Below the pieces are notes generated by a model. The model worked only from the letters and a program-made list of their open reading frames with translations, was not told where the DNA came from and searched no databases. A stretch of 56,144 nucleotides of DNA, taken from positions 38,413-94,556 of the forward strand of contig PS015052.1 of the NCBI GenBank assembly GCA_048213135.1, written 5' to 3'. Source of the stretch: Reclinomonas americana ATCC 50394 (Eukaryota). Position 1 is the first letter of the stretch. Each line of letters starts with the position of its first letter. This document shows positions 6,644 to 56,144 of the stretch, one piece after another. The position numbers and the translations under genes are program-made.

Positions 6644-9600
6644 TTACACGTCCTCGTCATCGTCCTCGTCCTCCTCCTCTTCCTCTTCCTCTTCTTCCTC
6701 CTTCTCCTCCTCCTCCTCCTCTTCCTCTTCCTCTTTCTTCACCGCCTCCATTTTCACCGGTTTCTCGTCACCCAGCACTGCATCACGCTCGTCAGTGCTC
6801 ATGATGAAACGACACGCAACAACAGCAGCAGGTGCATCAAGATTGTTGGATTTCGAGCACTCACCGGCGCGCTCAATCTCCCCCTTCGATAGGCAGCCGT
6901 CTCGAAGCAGAGTGGCCAGCAGGCCTGGACAGTCGTGGAGCAGACGCATGGCCTGCTGGATATATGGCAGAAGAACACTTTGACGGACTCCCTTCCACAA
7001 CTTTGCTGATTCCTGCCACCCATGATATCGGAAGGTGAGTCAACATCATCAATATTCAAGAGCACAAACAGCTGTGCACATGCCTCACAGTAGCCGCAAT
7101 CGTCGATGACAATCATTGGTCTCTCGACAGCATCCAGCAGCGCAGCTCCTCGAAGACCGCTCTTCTGATGATTGCACACTCATGGAGCTTCAGTCATCAC
7201 CAGAACGTCACGATCGGAGGCGACACCGAAACAGCACAACGACGCTCACCTCGACGAAGTGGCTCACGCTCGCCAGCACGCCCTCAACTGACTTGGTCGT
7301 CCTGCTGCGTGCCATGCCGGCACTACTGGCAAGACTCGTGCCAAATGCGGACATGACAGCGGACGACGGACAGCCCGGTCCCTCCGACGGCAGTCCGCAG
7401 TCGTCACAGGCAAGCAGGAAGAGAAGGCGCTGATGATGGAGGACTGTGGATCCCATCACAGAGAGTGCCATGAGGCCGAATGCCTTCACCAGTATCTTCT
7501 TCCTGTTGCATGCCTGTTCGCATGTTAATTGGGTGAGTGGAAGAGAGTGAGGAGTTCACGATAGCATCAACGGTGACATGCAAGGAGATAACAACAACAC
7601 GCAACATGCAGTTTCGTCAGCATCAGTTGCTCGCTGACACTCAGCTTCGCAGGATCAACCATGCGGCGCTGTGAAACACAAGCCATGCAGTGTTGAGACG
7701 TACCTCATGCATTTCACTGAAGAGAGCGTCGGGCGTACCTTCTTTCCCTTCCCATCATCGTCCTCATTCTCACTTGCGTCAGCATGCTCCCTATCCTTCC
7801 CCTCCACCTCTTTCTTGAGAATCTCCATCTCCCTCAGAGCTGTCCATTGCTTGTTAGCACATCGTGCAGCAATGTACAGCAAAGAATGTCACGCAGCCAA
7901 ACCTCGTTCACTGCACCACTCGACGGCACGCTCCATATCTGCCTTCGAAAGACAACCGTCTCGAAGCAGAGTGGCCAGTAGGCCAGGACAATTGCGGAGA
8001 GCTTGCACGGCCTGTGTGACGAACAGCAGAAGAGCATTTGGAGGACCTCGCTTCGACAACTTTGCTGATTCCTGTCACCCGAGAAACGCGAACGTGAGAC
8101 AACATCTGCGGCGCACAACCATCGTCCACATGCCTCAGATTGACCACAATTGTCGATTGCAACCAGCGGTCTCTCGACAGCTTTCACCAATGCAGCTCCT
8201 CGAAGATCGCTCTTCTGATGATTGTCCACACGGGTCAGCCAGCAGGTAAGCCACCATCGATGTGAAACTGGAGCAACAAACTAACACTCACCTCGATGTA
8301 ATTGCTCACGCCCTCGAGCACGCCCTCAACTGACTTTGATGTAGTGCAGCGTGCCGTGTCGGCACTTTTGGAAAGACTCTTGCCGAATGCAGCCATGACA
8401 GCGGATGATGGGCAACCCGGTACCTCTGACGGTAATCCGCATTCGTCACAGGAAAGCTGGAAGAGAAGGCGCTGGTGGTGGAGGACGGTGGATCTCAGCA
8501 CCACGGGTGCCATGAGGCCGAATGCCTTCACCAGTATCCTCTTCCTGTTGCAGCCCTGCTCCCATGTGTGATGGGCAGACGCAAGTGAGGATTTCATGGG
8601 AACACTGTCGGTGACATGCAAGGAGATGACAGCAACACGCAACAAGCAGTTTCGTCAGCATCAGTTGGTCGTTGACGCTCAGCTTCGCAGGACCACTGTT
8701 GCGGCGCTGCAAACGCACACAATGAATTGTTTAGAACCTCACCTCTTGCACAGAACGCAGTGACGAATGTACCTTGTTCCTGCCATTCTCTCTCGAGTCG
8801 ACATCTTCATTCTCGCTGTCGTCATCATCCTCCTGCTCTTCCTCCCTCTTCTCCTCTTTCTTCCCCATCTCCATATCTCTCAGAGCTGGGCCAGATTGTC
8901 AGTAAGTGCACAAACAGTGCAGCAAACGACGGTCATGCAGCCAAACCTCGTTCACTGCACCACTCGGCGGCACGTACAATATCTGCCGCAGACAAACAGC
9001 CGTCTCGGAGCAGAGTGGCAAGCAGGCCAGAGCAGTTGTGGAGAGCATCCAAAGCCTGCGTCACGAACGGCAGCAGTCGCGTCTGCTTGTTGTGCTGCAT
9101 CCCTGGCAAAAGCGACGACTCCTGACATCCGAATTTCGGAACACAAATCGTGAGAAACGCCATTCAGCATGCATGATACACACAGCGGCAACAACCTCGG
9201 AACATCCTATTTCATCCACCACAACCAGAGGTCTCTCAATGGCATCCGCCAGAGCCGCATCGCACAGTTCACTCTCCTGCATAATGGCACATATGTTAGC
9301 GCTCACCATTGATAAAGTTGTGCAAGAAATGGTCGTTGCTCACCTCGACAAAGTTGCTCATCATCTGGAGCACTCCCTCAACTGACTTGGGCGTCTTGGC
9401 GCGCGCATTATTCACAAATTTGCTAAGACTCTTCCCGAATGAGCTCACCACTGCCGGCGAAAGACACCTTGCTTTCGATGCAGAGACACCACCGCATTCC
9501 TTGAAAGCGAGTTCAACAAGAAGTCGCTGATGATGGCGGACTTTGGATCCCATAACCATCGGAGCCATGATGCCAAACGACATCACCAGTATTTTCTTCT

Positions 9601-12552
9601 TGTTACAGCACTGCTCGCCCATGAATTACATGTATGGTGCAATGAGCATTCAATCAGCCACCAGACCATCGAAGAAACATGACTGCAAATACACGCAACA
9701 AGCAGCCTCGCCAGCATCAGTTGTTCGTCCCTGCTCATTGTCGCAGAACCACTCCCTCGTCGCTGTGGATGCGCACCATGAGATGCAGTCACAGTGTGCA
9801 CCCGCCCCACCATCCATGTCACACCTTGCTCCCGCCACCTTTGCCAATGTCGTTGTCCTCATCTTCCGCCCCGCTGACCCTCGAATCATCCTCCTCGATT
9901 TCCCTAATTTCTTCTAATTTCAGCACCTTCGCCGCCAGCAGAGCTGCATCTTGCTTCAGTCAAGATCCACACGGTTGAACGTACTCGATGCCATCAAACC
10001 TCTTACACTGCACCACTCGACAGCCCGTGCGATCTCCTCCTCGGAGAGACAGCCGTCTCGAATCAGCGACACTTGCAAGCCAGGACACTCACGTAGGGCC
10101 TGCGCGGCTTGGGCGATGAGCGGCAGGAGACGGTCGTTACCCTTCCCTTCTTTCTCTACAATCGTCCATGACTCCTAAAGCACGATTGACATCGTGAAAG
10201 TAGCATATGAGTCGCCACAAACCGAGAAACGCAAAGAGCACACTATTTGGAAAGTTGGCTTACCTCCGAATGGCCCCGTTCATCAACCACAATCAGTGGT
10301 CTCTCAACTGCATCCGCCAGAGCAGCACCACTAAGTTCACTCTTCTGTAGAGTTGCGATGTTGGCTCATGTTCCAATCACGTGAGGGGCAGCACAGACAG
10401 ATGCTCACCTCGATGAACTTGCTCATGCTCTGGAGCACTCCTTCAACGGACTTGGGCGTGTTGGTACGTGTATTGTTGACGGCCTTACCAAGACTCTTGC
10501 CGAACGAGTCCATGACTGCGGACGACGGGGAGCCAGCTCCTGACGAAGGGATGCCACACTCCTTGCATGTGAATTCAAACAGAACCCGCCGATGATGAAA
10601 GACTGCGGATGACTTCACAATCGGTGCCATGATGCCGAATGCCGTCACCAGTATCTTCTTCTTGTTGCACCGCTGTTCGCACACACACACGCGCCAGGTG
10701 TTATGGCAGGCAATCACGTGGTAGAGCGAAGCAATCTGCCTTGCTGAAGTGCACACGCAACTAACAGTCTGTCCAGCAGCATTCGCTCGGCCTTGCTGAG
10801 ATCTGCATCACATGAAAAGCGACCACGCTTGACGCGCTGAAAGATGCACAATCCATCAATCAACACAACTGCATCACCAACCAAACAAAAATTGGCATTT
10901 GTCGAACCTTTCTCGGCATCGATTCTTCTTCATCCCCGCTGGCTGCATCCACCTGTGAACACACAAGGCATTGATGTTTGACCAAGTCCGTGAACACACG
11001 TGCATATACACACAGCCTCTGTTGATCATGCACTGGCATACCTTGATGTCATCCTTTTCCACTTTGATGACATCATCCTCTCCGTCATTTTCCTCCTCCT
11101 TCTTCACCATCATCTTCACATCGCCAGAATCTGCGTGGTGCTGGTCAAACACCAGCGCAAGCAACACCAACAGCGGTATGAGATTGCAGACCTTTTGAAT
11201 GGCACCACGTGACGGCGCGTGCTATCTCGGCCTTAGAGAGGTGGCTGTCTCGAAGCAGAGCAGTCATGAGACCACCGCACTCGCGCATCGCTTTCATGGC
11301 CTGTGCGGCAAATGGCTGAAGATGATCTTTCTTGTTTTTGAATCCTGTTGGCAATCTCTCCCACGATCCCTGGGACATACAAGCCAAGTGAGCGAAGATC
11401 AGTAGACGTGATCACAGCAGATACAGGGGATCGCGAAAAACCCAACTCACCTCCGAATACCCGCGCTCATCCACCACAATGAGTGGTCTTTCGACAGCAT
11501 CCACCAGAGCCGCGCCACTGAGCTGGCTCATCTACAGAATGCAATCATTTACATCTTGGTTCACATTCCGCGATCGTCACAGCCGCACATACTTGCTCAC
11601 CTCGATGAAATTGCTAACGCTCTGGAGCACACCCTTCACGGACGTGGGCGTTGAGCTGCGTGAATAACTGGCAGTCTTAACGAGACTCTTGCCGAATGCA
11701 CACTTGACTGCAGAATACGTGCGACCCGGTGCCGACATTGAAATCCCGCAGTCGTCACAGGCCAGCTCAACGAGAACACTCTGATGGTGGATGACTGTGG
11801 ACCTTTGGACGATCGGTGCCATCAGGCCAAATGCCTTCACCAGAATCCTCTTCCGATTGCATCGCTGCGAGTGACACAAGAAGAATGGTGAGTGCATTGA
11901 GGAGAAGGTGGAGCGCTGGGTTGCAGAGATCATGCACACGCAACAAGCAGCCTGTTCAGCAGCAGCTTCTCGCCTGCGCTCAACTTCTCTGGCTCTTTCG
12001 CAGCTCGAGTCTTGCCACACTGCGAATCCACAGCATGCATCATTGACACAACGAACCCAAATGCAGATCCATCGATGAACAAGCACAACAATGTAAGCGA
12101 CAGAGAATCCACACCTTCTTCTTCTTAGGCGGTACAAGCTCGTCATCGCTGGGCGCGTCCACCTGCAGAGAACAAAGAACCATCAGGTGTCAACTGCCAT
12201 GCACGAGCAGGAGCAAGTGTGACGCATGCCTCAACGAAGCTCACCTCCAGAGAACGCTTGCGGGATGATGTCTCAACTGAGTCTCGTGCAAGCAAGTCCT
12301 CACTGTGATCCACCAGAGACGAGTCGACTCGCTGTCTCCTCGCACGTTGCTGTGCAATCATGTAAGAGAGAGAGAGAGAGAGGGAGAGAATTCAATGAGA
12401 GACAAGCTCATCTTGGGATGACAGACACAATCACAGTACCTCGACGATGCCATCCATCGCTGTGTATTCCATGTGCTCCTGGTGAGCAGCTGTGTGCATG
12501 CACCACCCAGGTGAGACATCACGTGACGCGAGAACACCAAATACTGCGACAG

Positions 12553-12627: not shown

Positions 12628-12715
12628 NNNNNNNNNNNNNNNNNNNNCCGGAAGGGAAAGGGGGTGGGAAAGAGAAAGGGGGAAGGGAGGGGAAAGTTGG
12701 GATGAGAAATAAGGA

Positions 12716-13008
12716 GTACAGCGACAAGAGTGGAGCACAGGCGACAAGAGTGGAGCACCAGCGACAAGAGTGGAGCACAGCGACAGGGAGGAGCACCAGC
12801 GACAGGGAGGAGCACCAGCGACAAGAGTGGAGCACCAGCGACAAGAGTGGAGCACAGGCGACAAGAGTGGAGCACCGCGACAGAGTGGAGCACAGCGACA
12901 GAAGGAGCACCGCGACAGAGTGGAGCACAGCGACAGAAGGAGCACAGCGACAGAGTGGAGCACAGCGACAACAGGAGCATCAGCGACAGAGTGGAGCATC
13001 GCGACAGG
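12716..13008. repeat. Minisatellite, ~17-20 bp unit (GCGACAAGAGTGGAGCAC[C]A) in an SDR intron
   Basis: About 15 degenerate tandem copies read directly. Confidence 0.9.
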
Positions 13009-13059: not shown

Positions 13060-13692
13060 TTGACAACACGCCTCCAGTCGGCATACTTGAGATCGGCGAT
13101 GGCATCAATGTGCTGCACACCAGCATTGATCACTGCACATGACAACAGCATATGAATGAAACAGAAACGCATTTACGTGGTCGCTGCTGCTCACAAAGCA
13201 TCTCGTCACTGCTTGACACCAACTGATGCTCTGCTTTCACGAACTTCTGATTGCCCATTCTCCTTCTTCTTTCTGCTCATCATCAGTCTCTTCAACAACT
13301 CTCTACGTACTATGGCTTCCAATCTCACTTGCCGCTAATCCCGCACCTCAAACTCTCTTCCTTGCTCAGCTTGCCAACAGCTCATGCCACGACGCTTTCT
13401 ATGTCTGCTCAGCTGCTTTTTCCGAGTGCAGGTTGCATTCTCTCACCAATCGTATCCAGTCGCCCATACGTCTTCACCGTTGCATCCACCATCTCATTCA
13501 CCGCCTTCTCATCCGTCACATCCACCGCCACCGCCATGCCCTTCCCGCCAATGGCCGCCACCGTCGCTCGCGCCGTTTCCGCATTCAGATCGGCGCACAC
13601 TACACGCGCGCCGTCACGAGCATACCGCAACGCAATGCCGCGTCCGAGCCCAGAACCGGCGCCGGTAACCACGCACACCGTGTCCTTCAGTG
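13060..13692 (-). CDS. Classical short-chain dehydrogenase/reductase, D-3-hydroxybutyrate dehydrogenase (BdhA)-like; partial (two exons)
   Basis: Exons 13692-13447 and 13132-13060 splice in phase to LKDTVCVVTGAGSGLGRGIA...VVCADLN...VDVTDE...YGRLDTIVINAGVQHIDAIADLKYADW. This contains TGxxxGxG and a NAG motif followed by the BdhA-type QH. The start exon and the catalytic YxxxK half are not visible. Confidence 0.85.
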
Positions 13693-25836: not shown

Positions 25837-28800
25837 TCAATCCAGCAACAACGTAAACTGCCCACACGCCTCCCGCAGCGCGCGCATCCCCTCCAACACC
25901 TCCTGTGCCGTCGGCCGTTCATACCGCATGCTCATGCACCGCATTCCCAGCTCAAACATCGGTTCGGCGAGGCGCGGCGTCCACCCAGCTGCCCGTCCAT
26001 CCACCACCTCCATCACGCGCAGCGAGGCTGGCGAGTCGTCCCACTCCACCGACCACTCCACCACGGCGGCCACCGGCTTGCCGGTGACCAGCTGCACCAG
26101 CACCATGCCCATACTGTACACGTCGTTTTTCGGCTGCGGTCGGCGCACGCGCATCGCCAGCGGGTCCATGTAATCGAGTGTGCTGGCGGCGGTCATGGTC
26201 TGTGGGGGTGAGAGATGGGTTTAGAGAGCGGGAGGGAGATGAGAAAGAGAGAGGTGGGGGGGAAGGGTAACCTGGCCATCGGCAATCGATCGCGCAATGC
26301 CAAAGTCGCCGAGACACGCCTCGAAGCGGTGATCGAGAAGCACGTTGGAGGGTTTGATATCGCGGTGCACGACGTTGTTCTGTGTGGCGGAGGTAAGTGA
26401 GTGAGGGCATCATCGAAGAAGAAACAAGGAGCAAGAAACACAGGTTTGTGAAGCGAAGGGGGAGTGAGGATGCACTGAACACTAGAGGAGAGGGCGAGCG
26501 AGAGAGGCATGGGAAATCGAGAACGGAAGAGACACAGACGTAGAAGAATGCAAAGGTTTGTGAGACTTCGTTCCAGAGAGAACGAAAAATCGCTTGAGAA
26601 ACTTCTGCTCTTTGTGAATACAAACAAGAGAAGAACGGACAGATACAATCGGAATACGATTGTGACTGCTCCGTTCTTCTCTTCCAAAACCAAAGTATAC
26701 TTAACAGTAACTATCACGAACAAGGAAGGGCAAGGCGCGGAGTGACGACGCTAAGAACACGTGAGACTGATATACAAGCATGCACGTGTACAAGAGGAGG
26801 CACGATGGGTGACGTACAACAGAGGCGAGCGAGAGAGGCGTGGGGAAGCTGAGACCACGAGAGAGACAGAGATACATAAAGGCAAAGGATTGGGAACCAA
26901 GCAGGTGGGAAAGAGGGAGCAGTTGCACAGAATAAGGGAGACCGAGAGGCAAGAATGCAAGGCGAGGCACCGGGCGGCTAAAAAAAAGGAGCGCGGAGAC
27001 GAAGCACATGAGAACCTGGGAGTGCGGGAGGCAGTAAGACTTCAAGACCTGGCATAGTGAGATACAGTACCAGAAAACACAAAAAGAGAGGCACTCAAGT
27101 CGATACTGAGAGATACGAGAGTAAAGAATTACGCAAAACGACGCAGAGCAAGAGAGCCATTCAATCCCGAACACCCGAGAAATGGGAATATCCAGAGAGT
27201 GGCAAGAGTCCCGAGTGAATGTGACAACATTTCCCAAGGGTGGCTGATGCAAAAGTACCTTGTGCAAGAACGCCACAGCCTCTGCCAGCCCGACACCAAT
27301 CTGCACACGCTGTACGACAGAGAGTGGTGCTCTCCCCACTCGCGGCAGCAGCAAATGATCCTCCAGGTTTGAAACTCTGCGCGCTCACAATGAATGCGAC
27401 CATCAACAGCTACAACAAACGAACGCAGACGCACTCAAGAGCCTTGTACACGAGACAGCGTGCCTTGTCGTCGCCAACCGCATACCCGAGAAGGGGTACG
27501 ATGCGACGGTCGCGCAGGCGTCCAAGAGTGGCGACCTGTGACTAGATGTGAGAAGAGAACGATGGAGAAGGAAATAGGAAACAAACGCGCCTCGTTCTCA
27601 AAAGACTCCATCGTCCACGGTGCCTCGGGATCGAGCACCTTGATGGCCACGTGCATCTCGCGTAGCAGGGTGATGTAGACGGCGCCCTGGCCGCCTGCAC
27701 CAACCTTGAGGCGCGGCGAGAACGAGTCGGTAGCGANNNNNNNNNNNNNNNNNNNNGCACGATCTCGGGCCACTCGAAGCGCTGAACCGCAGTGTCGACT
27801 GCGAGGAGAGGAAGGGGAATGAGACGAGAGAAGGCTATGGCAACGGCGGCGAGTCTCTGGAAAACGCACATCTCTTTCTTTCCCCCCTCTACTTATCGTA
27901 TCTGTGAAGTAAGAAATGTGGACGAACTCTTCCTGACGTGCGAAAAAGAGAGAGAAGGAGAAGACAGCTTATCGAGGCAAATCAGAAGACAGGACGTCTT
28001 CCACAACTCATTTCTACTCCCTTCCCCTCTCCCCCCTCTCTCTCTTCTCCCCCTCTCCCCCCCTCTCTCTCTTCCCCTTCCCACCCATCTCCCCACCTTG
28101 CGCAAGAAGCTGCTGCTGCCTGAGCTGGGACACGAGGCGATCCCTCTCCTGCAGCTGCGCGGCGAGATCGGCCTTCTCGTGCAGCGCCACTGCCAACTCA
28201 GCAACAGCGCGATCTCGCTCGGCTTGCACTTGCGCGTGAGCACGTTGCCAGTCGGCGTTGATGCGGTGCAGCTGAGCGACCTGTTGCTGCAGCTCGGCGT
28301 TCATCTGCCTCTCCTCCGCATGCGACAGCTGCCACTCCGNNNNNNNNNNNNNNNNNNNNNNNNNNNNNNNNNNNNNNNNNNNNNNNNNNNNNNNNNNNNN
28401 NNNNNNNNNNNNNNNNNNNNNNNNNNNNNNNNNNNNNNNNNNNNNNNNNNNNNNNNNNNNNNNNNNNNNNNNNNNNNNNNNNNNNNNNNNNNNNNNNNNN
28501 NNNNNNNNNNNNNNNNNNNNNNNNNNNNNNNNNNNNNNNNNNNNNNNNNNNNNNNNNNNNNNNNNNNNNNNNNNNNNNNNNNNNNNNNNNNNNNNNNNNN
28601 NNNNNNNNNNNNNNNNNNNNNNNNNNNNNNNNNNNNNNNNNNNNNNNNNNNNNNNNNNNNNNNNNNNNNNNNNNNNNNNNNNNNNNNNNNNNNNNNNNNN
28701 NNNNNNNNNNNNNNNNNNNNNNNNNNNNNNNNNNNNNNNNNNNNNNNNNNNNNNNNNNNNNNNNNNNNNNNNNNNNNNNNNNNNNNNNNNNNNNNNNNNN

Positions 28801-31627
28801 NNNNNNNNNNNNNNNNNNNNNNNNNNNNNNNNNNNNNNNNNNNNNNNNNNNNNNNNNNNNNNNNNNNNNNNNNNNNNNNNNNNNNNNNNNNNNNNNNNNN
28901 NNNNNNNNNNNNNNNNNNNNNNNNNNNNNNNNNNNNNNNNNNNNNNNNNNNNNNNNNNNNNNNNNNNNNNNNNNNNNNNNNNNNNNNNNNNNNNNNNNNN
29001 NNNNNNNNNNNNNNNNNNNNNNNNNNNNNNNNNNNNNNNNNNNNNNNNNNNNNNNNNNNNNNNNNNNNNNNNNNNNNNNNNNNNNNNNNNNNNNNNNNNN
29101 NNNNNNNNNNNNNNNNNNNNNNNNNNNNNNNNNNNNNNNNNNNNNNNNNNNNNNNNNNNNNNNNNNNNNNNNNNNNNNNNNNNNNNNNNNNNNNNNNNNN
29201 NNNNNNNNNNNNNNNNNNNNNNNNNNNNNNNNNNNNNNNNNNNNNNNNNNNNNNNNNNNNNNNNNNNNNNNNNNNNNNNNNNNNNNNNNNNNNNNNNNNN
29301 NNNNNNNNNNNNNNNATGGCGACCTCGTGGTCCTGTCGCTCCTGCTCTCGCTGCTGCCGCACCGAGGCGAGCTCGTGCTGGAGCTGCGCCGCGTACGCGA
29401 TGTAGTCGGCAAGGTGGCGTGCTACGGCGGCGTCGTGGTCGGACGCCTGCAGCGAGAGGAGTGTGAGAGGCACGGAGCACACGCAGAAAGAGAGAGAAGG
29501 AAGATCCGAGTCTCACCGAGCGAGCAGGAGCTGCGAGCAAGGAGTGAGCAACAAGCGTGAAAGGGAGATTGCACACAGAATGAAGATTTCATACCTGCTT
29601 GCTGTTGCTGGCGTGGCGATCGCGACCCTGCTTCTCCGCGAAATAAGAAACACAGACAACAAACACAATGTGACGGACAAGAAGGAATAGGAGGACGGAA
29701 GTGAACAATGCTCACCAGCTTGCTGCTGGCGCGGCGATCCTGCTCGTTCCGAAGAAGGAGCAACAAATGACAGTAAGGAGTGAGTAGGAAGAGCAAAGAT
29801 CATGTCGTCTGATCGAAGCTCACCTGCTTGCTGCTGCTGAGGCGGCGATCCTGCACAATCCACGAGATGAGAACAGAAACAACGCGAACGTAAACGACAG
29901 CGATGAACAACGCTCACCTCCCTGCTGCTGTTGAGGTGGCACTGCTCGTTCCGCACACCGTGATCGCAACGCGTAAGAGGAATGAGCAAAGAATGCAGCG
30001 CATCAGACAACATCCTACCTGCTTGTTGCAGTTGAAGCGACGATCCTGCTTGTTTCGAAGAAGGAGCACGGGATGACCGTAAGGTGTGAGCGGAAAGAGC
30101 GGCGAAAGCAGCGCATCAGACAACATATCACCTCCTTGTTGCGGTTGAAGCGACGACCCTGCTGGGTTCAGCGAGATGAGGAACACAGGCAACAATGTGG
30201 TGGGGATGGGAAGAGAGAAAGAGCAAAGAATTCGGCACGTGAACAAGTCTCACCTGCTTGTTGCGGTTGTATCGACAATCCTGATTGTTCCACGAAAAAA
30301 GAAACACAGAAAAAATGCTGTGAGCGACAGGATGGTAACTGAAGGATGTCGAGAGAAACACCGCTCACCGCCCTGCTGTGGGGGAAGTGGCACTGCTTGT
30401 TTCAAATAGGAGGAACAAGGACAGCAACGCGTGAGATGAAAGACCACAGAGTGCTTCTCCTGAAATCAAATCTCACCTCCCTGCTGTGGGGGAAGCGGCA
30501 CTGCTTGTTTCAAATAGGAGGAACAAGGACAGCAATGCGTGAGATGAAAGACCACAGAGTGCTTCTCCTGAAATCAAATCTCACCTTCGTTTCCTTGCAG
30601 ATGCGGGAAAGGTGCTGCTGCTGTTCCCGGAGAGAGTAGTGAGGAGAAAGAGCAACGATTACGTCACAAGAACAGATCTCACCTGCTGGCTGCTGTTGGG
30701 CACTCGACACAACTTTGCCACAACAGACAACAAAAAAGTGAGCGACGAAGGGCAAGATTGAAACCCCCCATATGACAAATCAACTGCACCTCCTTGCGGT
30801 TGGTGTTGAGACCCTGCTGCTCACAACAATCGGTCAGAGAAAGCTCACGGATGGCTTCTCAACAGCACAGGCCTCACCTCTTTGTTGTTGTGTCACTGCG
30901 CGGGGAATAATCGCACGCACAGTGAGACATCGGAAGAACACAAGAAACCAACCTGACAACATACCAAGATACTCACCTGTCTGCATCTGCTGCTCAACCG
31001 CCAGCCGGTCGAGCAACTTGGCCACCTGTTGGTGATTCTCTGCACGCGCCAACTGCGCCGCCGTCTTGCCACGTTTGTCGAGCATCGGAACCAGATCAGG
31101 GAAGTGCGTGGCCAGGAGCCGCACAATGACTTCGTGGCCTTCCACGGCGGCAAAGTGCAGTGCTGTGCAACGCGGAAACACAAAGCCGTCGGTGGTGACC
31201 GCATGCACGGTTTCCGGCGGACATCGTCGCTCGTCGGCCAGCAACCACTCGACAACTCGCAGCTGTCCGCGAAAGGCTGCTGCCATCAGTGGAGTCATGC
31301 CCGCGACGGTGACCATTCGTGCGAGCTGTTGTCCTGCACCACTCTCCTCCCACAGATACTCCAGCACTGCGAGGTGGCCTCCGTGGGCGGCAAAGTAGAA
31401 GGACGACTGGTTGTTCTCGTCCATTTCGTCGCGTTTGAGCAGTGTCGGAGCGCCCTCGCGTGTCACCAGCTCGCGGAGGGCTTTTATGTCGCCGCTGCTG
31501 GCCATGAGCCAGGCTTTCTTTCGTTGTTGGGTGCTGGGTAAGAGAGAGAGAGAGCAGGGTGAGTGTGGATGCTGACAACTGTGATGCAATGAGCATTGGT
31601 TGAATTCGCACGCGGAATGCACCTCAT
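25837..31627 (-). CDS. Ankyrin-repeat + Gln/Pro micro-exon linker + coiled-coil + IRAK/Pelle/RLCK-type Ser/Thr kinase
   Basis: Phase-consistent model: 31627-31623; 31533-30977 (ankyrin repeats: SSFYFAAHGGH, TPLMAAAFRGQ, TALHFAAVEGH, GKTAAQLA); 14 micro-exons in 30895-29517; 29446-gap-28097 (coiled coil); then 27798-27591, 27535-27435, 27376-27259, 26379-26272, 26199-25837. Kinase motifs: FEWPEIV..ATDSF, VGAGGQGAVY, VAIK, HRDIKPSNVLLD, GDFGIAR, YMDP, DVYSMG. Confidence 0.88.
29517..30895 (-). repeat. Tandem micro-exon/intron array (~95-125 bp period), including a near-exact 108-bp duplication (30364-30471 / 30472-30579)
   Basis: Recurring AG|(G)SxxQQQxG|GT units, seen on the + strand as CTCACC..CTG. 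Confidence 0.85.
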
Positions 31628-36500: not shown

Positions 36501-39500
36501 AAGAGTGAACTGCGCGATGCTGCTCTGGTGGATGCCATTGAGAGACCACTGATTGTGGTGGATGAACGGGGCCATTCAGAGGTGTGCCGACTTTGCTTTG
36601 TGCTATTTGCATTTCTTGGTTTGTGTCGACTCACTTGCTTTGTTCACGATGTCGGTCGTGCTGCAGGAATCATGGAAAATGATGGAGATGAAGCAGAAGA
36701 AAAACGACCATCTCCTGCCGTTCATTGTGCAGGCCGCGCTGGCCTTGCGTGAGTGTCCTGGCTTGCACGCGTCGCTGCTTCGAGACGGCTGTCTCTCCGA
36801 GGCGGAGATCGCACGGGCCGTCGAGTGGTGCACCGAAAGAGGTTTGATGGCATCGGATGCGCTTCTACTGTGTGCATGGCGTCAGGACTGACAGGCGAGA
36901 TGCAGCTCTGGTGGAGGCGAAGGTGATGAAGAAAGAAGAGATGAAGGAGGAAGAGGAGAAGGAGGAGGAACAGGAGGATGATCCAAGGGTCGATGGGGAA
37001 GACGATGAAGACGACGGCATGGATGAAGGTGACAGGAGGAAGGTATGACCATGGATGATTGGACAAGTGCACGTTGTGGCAGCATCTCATGGTGCGCATT
37101 CACAGCGACGAGGGAGCGGTCCTGCAACAATGAGCAAGGACGAACAACTAATGCTGGCAAGGCTACATGTTGAGTGTGCTTGTAGTCATGTCCTTCCTCG
37201 GTAGTCGTCTGGCTGATTGAGCTCTCATCCTGCCACCCATGTGTTCCATGCGAGAGCAGTGCTGTAACAAGAAGAAGATACTGGTGACTACATATGGAAT
37301 CATGGCGCCGTGTGTGGTGGAATCCACAGTCCGCCATCATCAGCGCGTTCTTGTTGAACTCGCCTGCAAGGAGTGTGGCATCCCTTCATCGAAAGCAGGC
37401 TGTCTTTCGACGTCAGTCGTGAGCTCATTCGGTAAGAGCCTTGGCATGTACGTTAGAAAAGCACGCAAGATGACGCCCAAGTCAGTTGATGGAGTGCTCC
37501 AGACCATCAGTGACTTTGTCGAGGTGAGTGTTGCCCGTCTCACCCGTCACATCAACGATCAGCGCTAACATATGTGACATTTTGCAGAAGAGTGAACTGT
37601 GTGGCGCTGCTCTGGCGGATGTCATTGAAAGGCCACTGGTTGTGGTGGACGAACGCGGCTATTCGAAGGTGCGGTTGCCCTGTATTCTGCGTGAAGATAG
37701 CGATTCTCACATTCTGTTTCCGGAATTCGGATGTCAGGAGTTGTCACTCTTGCCGTGGAAGAAGCGCAGCAAGCAGAATGCTCTTTTGCCGTTGTTCACA
37801 CAGGCCGTCGATGCCGTGCGCAACTGCCCAGGTCTGCTGGCCACTCTGCTTCGAGACGGCTGCCTTTCCGAGGCAGATATTGCACGTGCCGTCGAGTGGT
37901 GCAGTGAACGAGGTTTGGCTGCGTGACCTTCGTAATTGCTGCACTGTTTGTGCATGTGTTGACAATCTGGCACAGCTCTGAGGGAGATGGAGATGGTGAA
38001 GAAGGAGGAGAAGAGGGAAGAAGATCAGGAGGATGCTAACGACAGCGAGAGTGAAGATGTCGACGCGAGAGGGAATGGCAGGAGCAAGGTACGCCCGCCC
38101 GCCACTCCTTTCTGAAAGATACAAAAGGTATGTATCTTAACATTTCATGGTGTTCATGTCACAGAGCCACAACAAAGATCCTGCGAAGCTGAGCATTAAC
38201 GAGCAACTGATGCTGGCGAAACTGCTTGTTGCGTGTTGCAGTACTCTATTATCACCGACAATGCTCACCATGAACCCATCATTCACTCGCCCGCCCATCA
38301 CGCACGCGAACAGGGTTGCAACAAGAAGAGGATACTGGTGAAGGCATTCGGCCTCATGGCACCCTTGGTGATGGGATCCACAGTCCTCCACCACCAGCGC
38401 CTTCTCTTGCAGCTTGCCTGCGGCGAATGCGGAATGCCGTCGGAGGGACCTGGCTGTCCGTCATCCGCAGCCATGTCTGCACTCGGCAAGAGTCTTGCCA
38501 ATAGTGCCTACACGGCACGCTGCAAGACGCCCAAGTCAGTGGAGGGCGTGCTGGCGAGCGTGAGCAACTTCATCGAAGTGAGTGTCTCTGTGTTGGCTTC
38601 GTATTTCATTCGTGCCTGGTTGCTGATCCGACGTTCATGTGCATGTAATTATCAGAAAAGCGGTCTTCGAGGAGTCGAGCTGGTAGATGCTGTCGAGCGA
38701 CCACTGATTGTGATTGACGAACGTGGCTGCTCGGAGGCTTGTGGACATAATTGTGTGCATCGATGTGCGTCAATAATATATTGTCTCACTTTCTCGATTC
38801 TCGGGTCGTAGGAATCAGCCAAGCTGACGCAGATAAGCAGCAAGCAACATGTTCTTCTGCCGTTTNNNNNNNNNNNNNNNNNNNNCACTCAGCAGCGCAG
38901 CTCCTCGAAGACCGCTCTTCTGATGATCCCGCGCGAATATATTGAACTCAAGTCAATCAACAGCTCGTCACGATCGGAGGCGAATCAGAGAAAGCAAACT
39001 GACACTCACCTCGATGAAGTTGCTCACGCTCTCGAGCACGCCCTCCACCGACTTGGGCGTCTTGCTGCGTGCCTTCTCGGCATTTTTGGCAAGACTCTTC
39101 CCAAATGCAGACATGACAGCGGAATAAGGGCAGCCGTGTCCCTTGGACGGCATGCCGCATTCGTCACAGGTTAGCTGGAAGAAAACACGCTGATGATGGA
39201 GGATCGTTGATGCCACCACCACGGGAGCCATGAGGCCAAATGCCTTCACCAGCAGCCTCTTCTTGTTGCATCCCTGCTCGAATAATCATTGGATGAGTGG
39301 AGTGAGGAGCCGAGCAGAGAGATAGCAACAACACGCAACATGTAGTCTCGTGAGCATCAGTTGCTCGCTGACGCTCAACTTCGCAGGGCCACTCTTGTGG
39401 TGCTGCGATTGAGAGCCGCGCAGTTTTGAAAGGCGCACATCATTCACGCCTCATAGATAGCAGTGACGGGCGTACCTTGTGTCTCCTGTTTCCCTCCACG

Positions 39501-47400: not shown

Positions 47401-50400
47401 NNNNNNNNNNNNNNNNNNNNNNNNNNNNNNNNNNNNNNNNNNNNNNNNNNNNNNNNNNNNNNNNNNNNNNNNNNNNNNNNNNNNNNNNNNNNNNNNNNNN
47501 NNNNNNNNNGGGGGAAGGGGGGAAGGGGGAGAGGGACAACGGCGTGAGATGAGCGCCAAAGAGGACGGGATAGGGATCGAGAGAGAGAGAGAGCGAGATA
47601 GGAACACGGCATTGTGTACCACAAAGCTGTGTGACAGAAGGAGCAGAAAGAGCGGAAATGAGCTTTCTCTCTCTCTCTCCCCCGCACACGCACACATGGA
47701 AGCACACAGAGAGCGGCAAACATATATACACACATATACAGGAGGGGCAGAGAGCGTGTGTCAAAACGCGCGTGAAAGAAGGAACGAAGAGAGGGGAAGA
47801 GTTATTTTCTCTTTCCTGCACATGCACACAAGGAAAAACAGAGAGGGAGAGGTAGAGCGAGACAGAGCGAGAAAGAGAGATCGACACACATACAGAAGGA
47901 AGAGAGTGCGTGTGTCACATGAGTGAAAGAGAGCAGAAAAAGCGAGAATGAGCTCTCTCTATCCCCTGCAGACACTGAGGCACAGATCGAGAGAGAGAGA
48001 GGGAGGGAGGGAGAGGGAGAGCAAGAAAGCGACACAGAAGTAGACACAATGCGCAAACACGGACACAGAGAGAGAATGGCAGTGGGTGTCACAAACATGC
48101 GTGAAACTAGGAACAGACAGTAAAAAGAGTAGTTCTCTGTCTCTTTCCCCACACGCACCCACGGAGGAACAGAGAGAGCGAGAGAGAGAGAGAGAGCGAG
48201 AGCGCGACAGAGTCGTAGACACACAGTGTACACACACAGAAAGAGGGAAGGACAGCGTGTGCTACACAAATGCGTGAAAGAAGGAATGGAAAGAGAGATC
48301 GAGTTGTTCTTTTCCAATCTCACTCTCCTGTACACGACACAGACAAGTGGAGAGAGCGGCCTGGAGGGCAGCAAGCACAAGCGTAGACAAGAGACTGGGA
48401 GAAACCAGGTTATAAAGGTCTCGTTGTGGTTCATAGACCGCGACTCACCTGGCTGCTCGCTCAGGGCCGCCGATTGGTTCAAAGTGTACAGCACCTCGCG
48501 CAGCGCAGCCGGATGCACCCACAACCACAGGGCGCGAGGCAACATGTCCGCACTGACCATCCCCGCATCGTGAGCAAACCACATTTTCACCATCACATTC
48601 AAAAGAAACGCACCGAATGCTGCTGTCGGTGCACGGAGAGGCATGCGCATCCGCCTCGCCATCACGCTGGTGCCACAGGAACTCAGCGGTGCACACAAAG
48701 CCGGCGGGATATGCGCTGCACTTGTACACGTCGAGGTGGCCAGCAAACGAGCCGTCAATGTACCTGCACGGGGGAGAGCAGTTAGCCGAGCACGCAAATA
48801 CGCTTGTCCTATCCCTTCCAACGTGTGTGCGCAACTTGAGATTGGCCACCGCCGATACCCCCGGATCGCTCACTCGCTCCACCGCGCGAATCAGTGCGCC
48901 CTGCGGACCATGCAGCTCCACCACCTCCACGAACGACGCGTCGTGCAGTGTGCAGCCGGTCGCCGCCTGCCGGTGCGACGAGCGCACGCATTTCTCGTTG
49001 GGGTGCACCGCCAGCTTGTAGCCGTACAGCGGACGCATGTGCATGCGCTTGGCATGCCACAGGTGCGTCTCCAGCCACTTGAATGAGCGCTGACGGCGGG
49101 CAAACTCATCGCTCAGTCGGCCGGGGCGTCGTCGCTTGACGCGCTTTTGCGAGGTGGGTAGTCTGGGGAGGAGGGGGAGGGAAAAGGGGGGGGGGCGGGA
49201 GAAAGGGGGATTGGGGAGAAGGGGAAGGGTGAGGAGAAAGGGGGAAGGAGGAAGCTTCTCTTCTTATTCCCTCCTCTCGCTCTCGCAGGCGACAAGATTC
49301 GGCACACCCTGCATGAAAGAGAAGTGGGGAAGGACACTTTCTCTCTTCTCTCTCTCTCTCTCTGACACTCTCACGCACAAGCGATACAGAACACGCCTTG
49401 ACATGCATTACCTCCCACACACAAGTGAGAACCAGCGACCCCCGCATCGCAACAAACGGAAAAAAGGCCTTTGCATGCATCTAGTCTCCCCAGTCCCCCA
49501 CACAAGCGAATCACGGCACCAACATGCATCCTCCCTCCCTCTTCCCCTAACACAGCACGACTATAGACACGCCCTTGCTTGCATCCATCCCCCTTGCGAA
49601 CCCCGCACTGCAACAAACGACACAAGCTTGACTTGACATGCATCCACTCTCCCCCTCCCCCTACACACAAGCAAGAACCAGCACGACAACAGACACGCCA
49701 ATGTATGCATCCCTCCCCCTTGCCCCCACACACATGCGAACCCCGCACTGCAACAAACGACACAAATTTGACTTGACATGCATCCACTCTCCCCCTCCCC
49801 CTACACACAAGCAAGAACCAGCACGACAACAGACACGCCTTTGCTTGCATCCCTCCCCCTTGCCCCCACACACACGCAAACCCCGCACTGCAACAAACGA
49901 CACAAACTTGACTTGACATGCATCCAATCTCCACCTCCCCCTTCCCCTAACACAGCACGACAACAGACACGCCTTTGCTTGCATCCATCCCCCTTGCGAA
50001 CCCCGCACTGCAACAAACGACACAAACTTGACTTGACATGCATCCACTCTCCACCTNNNNNNNNNNNNNNNNNNNNCCCCCTTCCCCAAACACAGCACGA
50101 CAACAGACACGCCAAAGCACGAACAGCACGACAACAGACACACCTTTCCATGCATTCCCTTCCCCTTTACCCCCCTTACAGTCCCCTCACCTATCCTCCC
50201 CCTCGCCCTCCTCCTCCGACTTGACCACCACCTGCTCCATGCGTTGCATCTCTCGCTTCCCGCGCGCCCTGCGATTGCGCGGCAACAGATGCATGTTGTG
50301 ACTCATGGCGCGTCGGCGCTTGTGCTTGGGCAGTGTCTGGAAGACGCGACGGGTGCCCGAACGCTCGCCCGCGTGCAAGTCGGCAGTGAGCTTGGCCACT

Positions 50401-51364: not shown

Positions 51365-54300
51365 ATGTCTGCCTCTTCTCCGTGCGACGACGAGAAAGCA
51401 GACATGATGCTCATCGACAGCAAGCAGCATGTGACGACGATGATGATGCACTCCTCCTCTCCCTTCATCAACAGCAACAATGATGATGATGATGATGAGA
51501 AGAAGAAGAAGAAGAGTGCATTGGGGTCGTCTGCTCATCGTGGNNNNNNNNNNNNNNNNNNNNCTGATTGTGTGTCGTCCCAAGATTAGCATGTATCTCA
51601 CTGAATTCTCTCTCTCTATCTCTCTTTCCATGATTGCACAGCAACGCGCGAGGAGGCCGCGAGTCGACTCGTCTCTGGTGGATCACAGCGAGGACTTGCT
51701 TGCACGTGGCTCAGATGAGACATCGGTCCGCAAGCGTTCTCTGGAGGTGAGCTCTGATGCGACATGCGTCTCACTTTGCCTCTCGCTCGTGCATCACAGT
51801 CGACACCTGATGGTTCTTCATTCTCAGCAGGTGGATGCATCCGGAGATGACGAGATTGCACCGCCAAAGAAGAAAAAGAAGGTTTGGATTCTCTGCTACT
51901 GACATTGTTGTGATCGTTCGTCGATCTGCAGTTGGGTTCCATGTGTCAATGCTGCATGTTGTGGATTCACAGCGTGGCAAGACTCGCGCTGCAAAAGAGC
52001 CAGAGTTGAGCGCAGACGAGAAGCTGCTGCTGAACAAGCTGCTTGTTGCGTGTGCTTGTCACTCTGTCATCAATTTAACCCATGGCCACCTTGATCCTCC
52101 TTTTCCTAAACGCACTCACCATTCTTCATGTGTCACTCGCAGCGGTGCAATCGGAAGTGGATTCTGGTGAAGGCGTTTGGCCTGATGGCGTCCATTGTTC
52201 AGGAATCCACCGTCGTCCACCATCAGTGTGTTCTCTTCGAGATTGCCTGTGGCGATTGCGGGGTTCCGATTTCGGAGCCGGGTCGCACGTCGTCTGCAGT
52301 CAAGAGTGCATTTGGCAAGAGACTTGGCTGGACTGCAAGTGATTCGCGCAGCAAAACGCCCAAATCAGTGGAGGGTGTGCTCCAGAGCGTGAGCAACTAC
52401 ATCGAGGTGAGCAAGCATGTGCGGCTGTGACGACCGTGACATGTGAACCAACATGCAGATGATTGCAATGTACAGGTGAGCCAGCTCAGTGGCGCAGCTC
52501 TAGTGGATGCTGTTGAGAGACCACTGATTGTGGTGGATGAGCGCGGATATTCGGAGGCGAGTGTGGGTTTTTTTATTGCCTTCTGTTTCTTTTGCCATCA
52601 TGCGACTGATCTTCGTTCACTCGGCTGTATGTGCCAGGGATCGTGGAAGAAATTGCCAACAGAATTTAAAAACAAGAAAGATCATCATCAGCCATTTGTC
52701 AAACAGGCCATATATGTGATGCGCAAGTGTGTTGGTCTCATGGCTGCTCTGCTTCGAGATGGCTGTCTGTCGGATGCGGAGATTGCACGTGCCGTCGCGT
52801 GGTGCCATGCAAAAGGTCTGCAATCTCATACCGCTGTTGGTGTTGCTTGCACTGGTGTTGACCAGCGCCACGCAGAATATGGCGATGTGAAGATGGTGGT
52901 GAAGAAGGAGGAGGAAAATGACGGAGAGGGTGATGTCGTCAAGTTCGAAGACGATGACATCAAGGTACGGGGAACAAAAGCTGCGGGCGAGCAAGTGTTC
53001 GTGGACTTTGTCGACCATCGATATCTTGTGCGTTCACACAGGCGGATGCGGGGAGTGACAATGACGGAGAAACAAAGTCGAGCACGGTACGGCGATGCCA
53101 GTTTATGTTTATGGTTGGTGAGGCATGTGTTGAATGTGGATGTTGTATGGGATGTGCATTTGCAGCGCGTCAAGAGTGGTCGCCATGTATTCGATGCGGA
53201 TTTGAGCAAGGACGAGCGAGTGCTGCTGGACAGACTGCATGTTGCGTTTGCATGTCCACAACACCTTAGCAAGGCAGATTGCACTCTTCCATGCGCTGTG
53301 CCATAACACCTGATGCTTGGAACAGCGGTGCAACAAGAGGAAGATACTGGTGACGGCATTCGGCATCATGGCGCCTATAATTAAGCCATTTGCAGTCTGG
53401 CATCATCATCGTGTTCTGTTTGAACTCGCCTGCACGGAGTGTGGCATCCCTTCGTCAGGAACTGGTTCTCCGTCGTCCGCAGTAATGGAAGCATTCGGCA
53501 AGAGCCTTGGCTATTTCGTCCAAGTCTCACGCTCCAACACACCCAAGTCTGTTGAAGGTTTGCTCCAGAGCATGGGCAACTTCATCGAGGTGAGCATCTG
53601 TCTGTTCTGTCTATCTCTCACATAATCGGAAAGTGAGCCAATATCGATGCATGTGCAACTCTGCAGAAGAGTGAACTGCGCGGTGCTGCTCTGGTGGATG
53701 CCATTGAGAGACCACTGATTGTGGTGGATGAACGTGGTCATTCAGAGGTGTACCGACTTTCCTTTGTGCTATTTGTATTTCTTGGTTTGTGTAGACTCAC
53801 TTGCGTTGTGCAGGAGTCATGGAAGATGATGGAGAAAAAGCAGAAGAACAACGACCGTCTCCTGCCGCTTGTCATCCAAGCCGCGCACACCCTACGGGAG
53901 TGTCCTGGCTTGCAGATGTCGCTAATTCGAGACGGCTGTCTCTCCGAGGAGGAGATCGAACGGGCCGTCGAGTGGTGCAGCGAAAGAGGTTTGATGCATC
54001 GAGTGCGTTCTTCTGTGTGCATTGTGCCGTGGCTAACACGCGAGTTGCAGCTCTGACGAAAGCGACGGAGCTGAAGAAAGAAGAGATGAAGGGGGAAGAG
54101 GCTGATTCGAGGGTCGACAGGGAGGAAGATGACGACGACGAGATGGGCGAAGGTGAAGGTGACAGGAGCAAGGTATGACATTCAATGGTGAAGTGGGTGC
54201 ACACGGNNNNNNNNNNNNNNNNNNNNNNNNNNNNNNNNNNNNNNNNNNNNNNNNNNNNNNNNNNNNNNNNNNNNNNNNNNNNNNNNNNNNNNNNNNNNNN

Positions 54301-56144
54301 NNNNNNNNNNNNNNNNNNNNNNNNNNNNNNNNNNNNNNNNNNNNNNNNNNNNNNNNTGACAGCGTCTCATGATGCGCATTCACAGCAACGACGAGGGAGC
54401 GGTCCTGCAACAATGAGCAGGGACGAACAACTGATGCTGGCAAGGCTACATGTTGAGTGTGCTTGCAGTCATGTCCTTCCTCGGTAGTCGTCTGGCTGAT
54501 TGAGCTCTCATCCTGCCACCCATGTGTTCCATGCGAGAGCAGTGCTGCAACAGGAAGAAGATACTGGTGACTACATTTGGAATCATGGCGCCGTGTGTGA
54601 TGGAATCCACAGTACGCCATCATCAGCGCGTTCTTGTTGAACTCGCCTGCAAGGAGTGTGGCATCCCTTCATCGAAAGCAGGATGGCTTTCGTCGGCAGT
54701 TGTGAGCTCATTCGGTAAGAGCCTTGGCATGTACGTTAGAAAAGCACACAAGATGACGCCCAAGTCAGTTGATGGAGTGCTCCAGACCATCAGTGACTTT
54801 GTCGAGGTGAGTGTTGCCCGTCTCACCCGTCACATCAACGATCAGCGCTAACATATGTGACATTTTGCAGAAGAGTGAACTGCGTGGCGCTGCTCTAGCG
54901 GATGCCATTGAGAGGCCGCTGTTTGTGGTGGACGAACGCGGCTATTCGAAGGTGCGGTTGCCCTGTGTTCAGCGTGAAGATAGCGATTCTCACATTCTGT
55001 TTCCGGAATTCGGATGTCAGGAGTTGTCACTCTTGCCGTGGAAGAAGCGCAGCAAGCAGAATGCTCTTTTGCCGTTGTTCACACAGGCCGTCGATGCCGT
55101 GCGCAACTGCCCAGGTCTGCTGGCCACTCTGCTTCGAGACGGCTGTTTGTCTGAGGCGGAGATTGCACGTGTTACCGAGTGGTGCAGTGAACGAGGTTTG
55201 GCTGCGTGACCTTCGTAATTGCTGCACTGTTTGTGCATGTGTTGACAATCTGGCACAGCCCTGAGGGAGATGGAGATGGTGAAGAAGGAGGAGAAGAGGG
55301 AAGAAGATCAGGAGGATGCTAACGACAGCGAGAGTGAAGATGTCGACGCGAGAGGGAATGGCAGGAGCAAGGTACGCCCGCCCGCCACTCCTTTCTGAAA
55401 GATACAAAAGGTGTGTACCTTAACAATTCATGGTGTGCATGTCACAGAGCCACAACAAAGATCCTGCGAAGCTGAGCATTAACGAGCAACTGATGCTGGC
55501 GAAACTGCTTGTTGCGTGTTGCTGTTGTATTGGCATGTCAAATTCTGTCATGAACTCCTCACTTGCATGTGCCAACACACTTACGAACAGGGATGCAACA
55601 GGAAGAGGATATCGGTGAAGGCATTCGGCCTCATGGCACCCTTGGTGATGGGATCCGCAGTCCTCCACCACCAGCGCCTTCTCTTTCAGCTTGCCTGTGA
55701 CGAATGCGGAATGCCGTCGGAGGGACCTGGCTGTCCGTCATCCGCAGCCATGTCTGCACTCGGCAAGAGTCTTGCCAATAGTGCCTACATGGCACGCTGC
55801 AAGACGCCCAAGTCAGTGGAGGGCGTGCTGGCGAGCGTGAGCAACTTCATCGAAGTAAGTGTCTCTCTCTGTGTTGACTTTGTATTTCATTCGTGCCTGG
55901 TTGCTGATCCGACGTTCATGTGCATGTAATTATCAGAAATGCGGTCTTCGAGGAGTCGAGCTGGTAGATGCTGTCGAGCGACCACTGATTGTGATTGACG
56001 AACGTGGCTGCTCGGAGGCTTGTGGACATAATTGTGTGCATCGATGTGCGTCAATAATATTGTCTCACTTTCTCGATTCTCGGGTCGTAGGAATCAGCCA
56101 AGCTGACGCAGATAAGCAGCAAGCAACATGTTCTTCTGCCGTTC
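51365..56144 (+). CDS. Five-module repeat protein, copy 3 (runs off the window end within module 4)
   Basis: ATG at 51365 (MSASSPCDDEKADMML..), a PPKKKKK exon, and modules starting at ~51973, ~53167, ~54387 and ~55448, with the same introns as copies 1 and 2. Confidence 0.82.

Follow-up and report, generated by a model that had tools for sequence, protein, structure and literature searches.

The 27-bp exon 2 of the SmPoMuc mucins of Schistosoma mansoni, which encodes a nine-residue repeat, is described as duplicated together with its intron up to about 20 times, with repeat numbers that differ both between genes and between transcripts (PMC2576457). Schistosome micro-exon genes (MEGs) are reported to contain runs of very short symmetric exons whose removal is neutral for the reading frame (PMC4015677; bioRxiv 10.1101/2023.06.21.545858), and tropoelastin, a repetitive, low-complexity Gly/Pro-rich protein, is likewise presented as having cassette-removable exons joined at phase 1:1 junctions (PMC12554196). 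Here we describe a 1.4-kb array of thirteen micro-exons on the minus strand of a 56,144-nt stretch of Reclinomonas americana ATCC 50394 contig PS015052.1 (the whole stretch analysed, hereafter the window), which lies between an ankyrin-repeat exon and exons for a coiled coil and a protein kinase. We read the array as tandem modules of about 108 nt, each made of a 24-33-nt exon and a 64-95-nt GT-AG intron, all of which would descend from a single ancestral module, multiplied through repeated slippage or unequal recombination. An mRNA with all exons would encode a 118-residue Gln/Pro/Gly/Ser-rich tether linking the ankyrin domain to the coiled coil and kinase. Each short intron would most likely be excised separately, by intron definition, leaving most or all exons in the mRNA, and the length of the linker would shift mainly by gain or loss of modules in the DNA, possibly also by one residue at NAGNAG acceptors. 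Taken whole, with module array, tether, constitutive inclusion and DNA-level length change together, we hold this reading to be slightly better than an even chance.

The closest structural precedent appears to be the SmPoMuc family. In both cases one small exon of a multiple of three and its intron form a head-to-tail unit, with one peptide repeat per exon. The SmPoMuc unit as described is about 1 kb long, its copies are more than 94% identical and separated by GA microsatellites, and it serves a secreted mucin of an animal parasite, whereas the unit found here is about 108 nt long, its copies are mostly 60-75% identical, and it sits in an intracellular-type ankyrin/kinase gene of a protist. 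The array also shares with MEGs the symmetric micro-exons of 3-81 bp. In the published account of MEGs, however, micro-exons account for up to 75% of the coding sequence in genes for small, mostly signal-peptide-bearing secreted proteins, introns reach 5 kb and exon skipping was shown by cDNA sequencing (PMC4015677), while here the micro-exons, with the short exon that follows them, are 353 nt of a multidomain gene and the introns measure 64-95 nt. Because two defining features, a micro-exon-dominated small secreted protein and long introns, are absent, the gene is not a MEG. Tropoelastin differs in being a vertebrate extracellular matrix protein with larger exons, long introns and, as described, documented alternative splicing. 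Its junctions are all 1:1, whereas here this holds in the thirteen micro-exons only, the 14-nt exon that follows them exiting in phase 0 and the kinase intron at 26271-26200 lying in phase 0.

Iterated small in-frame exons, each supplying one polypeptide unit and multiplied by exon-plus-intron duplication, are also familiar from the PEVK region of titin, spider Flag silk and the 54-bp collagen exons, all of them parts of animal structural proteins with far longer introns. The array is thus a compact further example of a known route to repetitive protein segments, and what is already known of how such arrays arise is unchanged by it. Its exons, in the order of transcription, are as follows.

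30878..30895, minus strand: micro-exon 1, 18 nt, phase 1-1, VTQQQR
30790..30813, minus strand: micro-exon 2, 24 nt, phase 1-1, GSQHQPQG; weaker donor GTGCAG, CAGCAG acceptor
30683..30712, minus strand: micro-exon 3, 30 nt, phase 1-1; AAG acceptor, the sole one that is not CAG
30585..30614, minus strand: micro-exon 4, 30 nt, phase 1-1; acceptor a triple CAGCAGCAG
30477..30500, minus strand: micro-exon 5, 24 nt, VPLPPQQG
30369..30392, minus strand: micro-exon 6, 24 nt, VPLPPQQG
30254..30280, minus strand: micro-exon 7, 27 nt, GLSIQPQQA
30132..30158, minus strand: micro-exon 8, 27 nt, GSSLQPQQG
30019..30045, minus strand: micro-exon 9, 27 nt, GSSLQLQQA
29918..29941, minus strand: micro-exon 10, 24 nt, VPPQQQQG
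29824..29850, minus strand: micro-exon 11, 27 nt, GSPPQQQQA
29716..29739, minus strand: micro-exon 12, 24 nt, GSPRQQQA
29595..29627, minus strand: micro-exon 13, 33 nt, GSRSPRQQQQA
29517..29530, minus strand: 14-nt exon, phase 1 to phase 0; outside the repeat family in the MAFFT alignment

On the minus strand an AG stands directly before and a GT directly after each of the 14 segments, whose positions, lengths and borders agree with those given in a preliminary description of this DNA. The phases proposed there also held: the thirteen micro-exons (18-33 nt) are all multiples of three and phase 1-1, the 14-nt exon exits in the phase 0 required at 29446, and the joined frame reads open. Fifteen introns of 64-95 nt separate the exons of the region. 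Each exon carries one repeat of 8-11 residues of the form (G/V/A)-(S/P)-x-x-Q-(P/Q)-Q-Q-(G/A), and the fully spliced linker of 118 residues contains Q 38, P 19, G 13, S 13 and A 10, together 79%, which bears out the Gln/Pro linker that had been suggested. From this composition the linker is probably a disordered, flexible tether. Tandem NAGNAG acceptors, with a second AG exactly 3 nt upstream, are as frequent as had been noticed, and occur at nine of the 14 listed exons (nine of 15 acceptors when that at 29446 is counted).

The modular origin of the array is evident from its intronic as well as its exonic parts. Tandem Repeats Finder identifies a repeat with a period of 108 nt (2.1 copies, 97% matches) at 30364-30586 on the minus strand, spanning intron and exon of modules 5 and 6. 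The introns of these two modules are 0.99 identical and their exons 0.92, and the pair would be the most recent duplication in the array. Compared with itself by BLAST, the array gives a 533-nt alignment in a register shifted by 108 nt, that is by one module (70.7% identity, E 1.6e-54). That search, of the array against the 56-kb window, yields nine further pairs of shifted matches, and all 20 off-diagonal rows fall within the array. Among modules 4-13 the introns have a mean identity of 0.63, compared with 0.37 +/- 0.14 for shuffled introns, and the MAFFT alignment of 14 units brings out common intron blocks, namely a GTGAG..TTGTTC start, a TCTTTGCTCTTTC block, CTCAC and a GGAAC(A/G)AGCAG end. 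Modules 1-3 are more diverged, and the boundary of exon 3 and intron 4 still aligns with the later modules. Identity between modules spans about 60% to 97% and is mostly 60-75%; therefore, units have been gained over a long period and also recently. What these comparisons demonstrate is a change of length at the level of the DNA, by gain and loss of modules, and linker length may accordingly vary between strains.

The same BLAST search found no dispersed copy of the module elsewhere in the window, and an introner-like spread was rejected on the ground of these zero matches outside the array, for this window only. A scan of the window for GTGAG spacing returned the array alone on the minus strand and, on the plus strand, its CTCAC echo and one run of four sites. 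That run (19693-20012, plus strand) has its GTGAG sites 77-143 nt apart in a low-complexity, purine-rich stretch adjoining N gaps. The echo reflects the fact that CTCAC, the branch-like motif of the introns, reads GTGAG, like the donor, on the opposite strand, so that an evenly spaced GTGAG series exists on the plus strand too. The last 9 nt of several introns (aacaagcag) are, moreover, the same as the last 9 nt of several exons (AACAAGCAG) (29447-30976, minus strand). This likeness and the CTCAC/GTGAG complementarity may be a trace of how the module originated, or a coincidence.

A repeated module need not be a coding one. The array could be an intronic minisatellite of decayed or never-used pseudo-exons that stay untranslated, with the ankyrin exon spliced directly to the 14-nt exon, a join that would be in frame (phase 1 to phase 1). 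Neutral decay, however, predicts exon indels that are not multiples of three, whereas all five distinct exon lengths are multiples of three compared with two of the ten distinct intron lengths (hypergeometric P = 0.007). Distinct lengths were counted as the safer measure because module copies share ancestry; the raw figures are 13 of 13 exons and four of 15 introns. The extended splice consensus has also been kept in nearly all modules while adjacent columns vary, which again argues against decay. At the 15 donors the last exon base is G in 15, and the intron has G at +3 in 13, A at +4 in 12 and G at +5 in 13; at the 15 acceptors, C stands at -3 in 14 and G at -4 in 13, and adjacent intron columns agree in 5-11 only. 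Micro-exons 5 and 6, the youngest copies, differ at two bases, and both differences are synonymous, a third point against untranslated pseudo-exons. In every intron a branch-like CTNAY lies 18-45 nt before the AG, and retention of an intron would cause a frameshift or a stop for 13 of the 15, introns 1 and 12 alone being both a multiple of three and stop-free. Two introns of the window that are anchored by homology, of 64 nt in an ARF gene and of 72 nt in the kinase (Pfam positions 152/153), are both GT-AG and of similar size. The exon lengths, the extended consensus, the match to these two introns and the synonymous changes of the youngest copies are four lines that do not depend on the way in which the sites were chosen. 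Differences between exons of equal length number 12, 50 and 54 at codon positions 1, 2 and 3, which is weaker support, as CAR-rich DNA could mimic the pattern without coding. We rejected the open reading frame itself as coding evidence, since the joined exons have hardly a stop in any of the three frames. A chain of open segments bounded by AG and GT is likewise not significant alone, because such chains are easy to find and the three frames are largely open. Beyond chance are the modular homology, the restriction of exon but not intron lengths to multiples of three, and the extended splice consensus. A plus-strand gene beneath the array was considered and rejected as well, its two longest frames (118 and 98 residues) having no Pfam match above the cut-off.

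Several observations nevertheless weigh against a translated, constitutively spliced array. The openness of all three frames in this Q-codon-rich DNA means that an open frame proves little, and CAG/CAA-rich DNA can give a 3-nt periodicity without coding. Exons are not better conserved between modules than introns (identity 0.61 and 0.63, respectively), so that the exon segments diverge as fast as the introns, and second codon positions are as variable as third ones. It follows that selection on the peptide would be weak or only compositional. Dropping all 13 exons also keeps the frame, and the frame logic thus does not demand their inclusion. The number of modules may be misassembled, modules 5 and 6 being near-identical and the window being of draft quality, with 24 N runs that take up 8517 of 56,144 bases (15%), and one gap, of 976 N, blocks reading the gene straight through. 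Finally, in a comparative survey exon skipping accompanied short exons in three species that it names, contrary to what fully constitutive inclusion would lead one to expect (PMC6142364). Weighing both sides, we consider the pseudo-exon minisatellite improbable. Inclusion of the segments in mRNA seems to us likely, at about three chances in four, and the gene structure given here is probably right.

The preliminary description also noted that any subset of the micro-exons could be skipped without a frameshift, which is correct, all 13 being multiples of three in phase 1-1, and suggested that splicing could in this way tune the spacer. On such a cassette model, the 13 symmetric micro-exons would be included in varying subsets that set the length of the tether. 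Each subset is indeed in frame, and a stop codon cannot arise at any junction, since G is the last base of every exon and the possible junction codons are thus all GNN (GCA, GCT, GGA, GGG, GTG and GTT, for Gly, Val or Ala). Yet tandem duplication of one module already explains both properties. The phase 1-1 symmetry, with its split Gly/Val/Ala codons, is expected because only modules of a multiple of three can duplicate without loss of frame, and the final G because the AG/GT donor consensus fixes it there. As both stem from the way the array arose, neither is evidence that skipping is used or has been selected. The NAGNAG motif at nine of 15 acceptors would favour variable splicing too, the product changing by one residue if both AGs are used, although the nine cases are not independent, because the motif was inherited with the module. 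Weaker sites in module 2 (the GTGCAG donor) and module 3 (the AAG acceptor) lean in the same direction, as do the precedents of schistosome MEGs (PMC4015677) and tropoelastin (PMC12554196). The survey that ties skipping to short exons in its three named species reports, however, that intron retention exceeds exon skipping in all species but one, and that frame-preserving skipping is enriched in animals, unlike in other eukaryotes (PMC6142364).

The introns themselves speak to the mode of their removal. Under the intron-definition model, short introns with strong sites are expected to be recognised individually, and the introns here, at 64-95 nt with strong and uniform GTGAG donors and GCAG acceptors, would if anything favour constitutive removal intron by intron. 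We therefore regard the cassette model as unlikely, and estimate that splicing diversity is a less likely reading than constitutive inclusion combined with gain and loss of modules. A stronger form, which we find distinctly doubtful, would make the array an evolved molecular ruler, in which 2^13 in-frame, stop-free subsets, regulated skipping and the choice at NAGNAG acceptors determine how far the coiled-coil kinase can reach from the ankyrin docking domain. If true, this would be a protist counterpart of the cassette splicing of titin PEVK and tropoelastin, in a lineage where frame-preserving skipping is thought rare.

The exons on either side of the array place it within a probable ankyrin, coiled-coil and kinase gene with the following parts.

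30977..31533, minus strand: ankyrin-repeat exon, ATG at 31505, phase-1 end with donor CAG/GTGAGT, Pfam Ank_2 and Ank
29316..29446, minus strand: first coiled-coil exon, phase-0 start, enters the 976-N assembly gap, without Met
28097..28339, minus strand: coiled-coil exon after the gap, donor CAAG/GTGGGG, phase 1, in which the coiled-coil style goes on
27591..27798, minus strand: first kinase exon, Gly-rich loop and VAIK, broken by a 20-N gap at 27737-27756
26272..26379, minus strand: kinase exon with HRDIKPSN and DFG, Pkinase positions 116-152
25837..26199, minus strand: last kinase exon (C-lobe), Pkinase positions 153-259, stop codon at 25837-25839

The ankyrin exon, with a coding stretch of 528 nt and an N-terminus that is an ankyrin repeat beginning at Met, matches Pfam Ank_2 at 71.2 bits (cut-off 27.3, E 1.1e-19) and Ank at 60.8 bits (cut-off 21.1, E 8e-17). 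The micro-exons and the 14-nt exon add up to 353 nt, which carries phase 1 into the phase 0 of the coiled-coil frame, and the exon from 29446, read in that phase, is an open, heptad-like sequence rich in Q, E, R and A. It runs directly into the assembly gap of 976 N (28340-29315). The exon beyond the gap has a weak coiled-coil-type Pfam match under the cut-off, and its donor at 28097 and a 298-nt GT-AG intron lead to the first kinase exon with the frame kept. The Pfam Pkinase domain is matched at 37.9 bits (cut-off 31.7) by the HRD/DFG exon and at 26.8 bits by the C-lobe exon, at consecutive profile positions, the two being separated by a 72-nt GT-AG intron in phase 0 (26271-26200). The joined kinase exons hold the catalytic HRD..K..N and DFG motifs, and the best solved relatives are BRI1, SYMRK and IRAK4 for the C-lobe exon and BAK1 for the HRD exon. 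The domain is accordingly that of an RLK/Pelle/IRAK-like Ser/Thr kinase of the TKL group, with two gaps in the gene model limiting subfamily placement. Continuity of the kinase motif (..SFENE / VATLGRL..) needs a 55-nt intron that starts with GC (27536-27590, minus strand; GAG/GCGCGT ... CACAG/GTC), which is either a GC-AG intron or a base error of the draft assembly. At the junction downstream of it (~27380-27440), inspection by eye found no canonical sites.

Neither the micro-exons nor the 14-nt exon nor the coiled-coil exon contains a Met, and no start lies in frame upstream of 29446; the kinase part therefore relies on the start codon of the ankyrin exon. This tells against a division into two genes, an ankyrin-only protein produced by read-through of introns 1 and 2 up to a stop at 30834 and a separate coiled-coil kinase. 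That division would be compatible with intron 1, of 81 nt, being a multiple of three and stop-free, so that the open frame of the ankyrin exon extends to 30834, and with the sole close relative found being a 154-residue ankyrin-only peptide derived from an expressed sequence tag (EST). The EST peptide, however, is a truncated single read that diverges before the ankyrin domain ends and is uninformative on what follows. We consider two genes very improbable; ankyrin exon, linker, coiled coil and kinase probably form one gene. The preliminary description had presented the micro-exons as the spacer between ankyrin repeats and kinase. Their in-frame join to both sides stands, but they are not a plain spacer, as the coiled coil also lies between: the ankyrin-to-kinase spacer is linker and then coiled coil.

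The EST peptide (P0075), from the jakobid Reclinomonas americana, is the closest relative of the ankyrin exon among 150 proteins listed from 1.84 billion representatives. It is 64% identical over residues 1-138, has the same starting Met and ends before the linker. The only other specific-looking relative among the 150 listed, P0143, has 44% identity to the ankyrin exon and shows nothing like the linker downstream of its ankyrin part. Against proteins of similar length the ankyrin exon gave two matches, P0075 alone being close, and against longer proteins 47, all of them generic ankyrin proteins at 24-43% identity and none specific. None of 1025 candidates scored in the search of the kinase C-lobe exon against longer proteins, and none of 149 pattern matches to related loci in metagenome contigs was confirmed.

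Ankyrin repeats N-terminal to a TKL-group kinase are known from ILK and TNNI3K. The order of domains is the same here, with RLK/Pelle/IRAK kinases as the nearest solved relatives, whereas what sets this gene apart is the long Q/P linker and coiled coil that lie between its ankyrin and kinase domains. Orthology to ILK or TNNI3K was not found, the kinase-exon search having no match and the ankyrin matches being generic.

The window as a whole is unlike the genome of Andalucia godoyi, which is characterised as compact and intron-poor (PMC7050145). Microsatellites of (GA)n/(CT)n or (GT)n border many of the gaps in the window, and minisatellites occur with a 140-nt period at 49595-50056 (3.4 copies) and with 20-41-nt periods at 1345-1817 and 12711-13007. 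Rfam gave no match in the whole window. Other genes and exons, together with an open reading frame (ORF) family of about 105-200 residues in at least ten copies, clustered on both strands, are:

22486-23098, minus strand: ARF-family GTPase gene with a single 64-nt GT-AG intron (22918-22981), Pfam Arf E 4e-55, intact spliced product of 181 residues
48448-49263, minus strand: exon with a POP1 N-terminal domain (RNase P/MRP subunit, E 5e-23)
13412-13699, minus strand: short-chain dehydrogenase exon (E 1e-15)
7211-7555, 8238-8654, 9299-9625, 10340-10807, 11580-12182 and 38971-39285, minus strand: copies of the ORF family
52110-52427, 53314-53622, 54504-54848 and 55483-55926, plus strand: copies of the ORF family

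Members of the ORF family share the motif CN[RK]K[RK]ILV.AFG.MAP ... TPKSVEGVL, and each copy is followed by a second conserved ORF (QKSELRGAAL.DA.ERPL.V.DERG). Pfam returned no match for the ORFs at 54504-54848 and 54811-55206 or for the nearby 52440-53303. The cluster resembles either a tandem gene family restricted to the lineage or a repeat element.

For annotation, the locus carries a warning: gene finders that ignore exons shorter than 35 nt would cut this gene in two. The array is also well suited to deciding whether, outside animals, arrays of symmetric micro-exons undergo constitutive or combinatorial splicing, and whether the linker of a multidomain kinase differs in length between strains. 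If transcripts confirm the structure, it would represent a very compact form of protein-repeat growth by duplication of whole modules, each of about 108 nt and with an exon that supplies a single peptide repeat. The gene concerned encodes a signalling kinase of a protist group that has been little sampled, the nearest relative found being a Reclinomonas EST.

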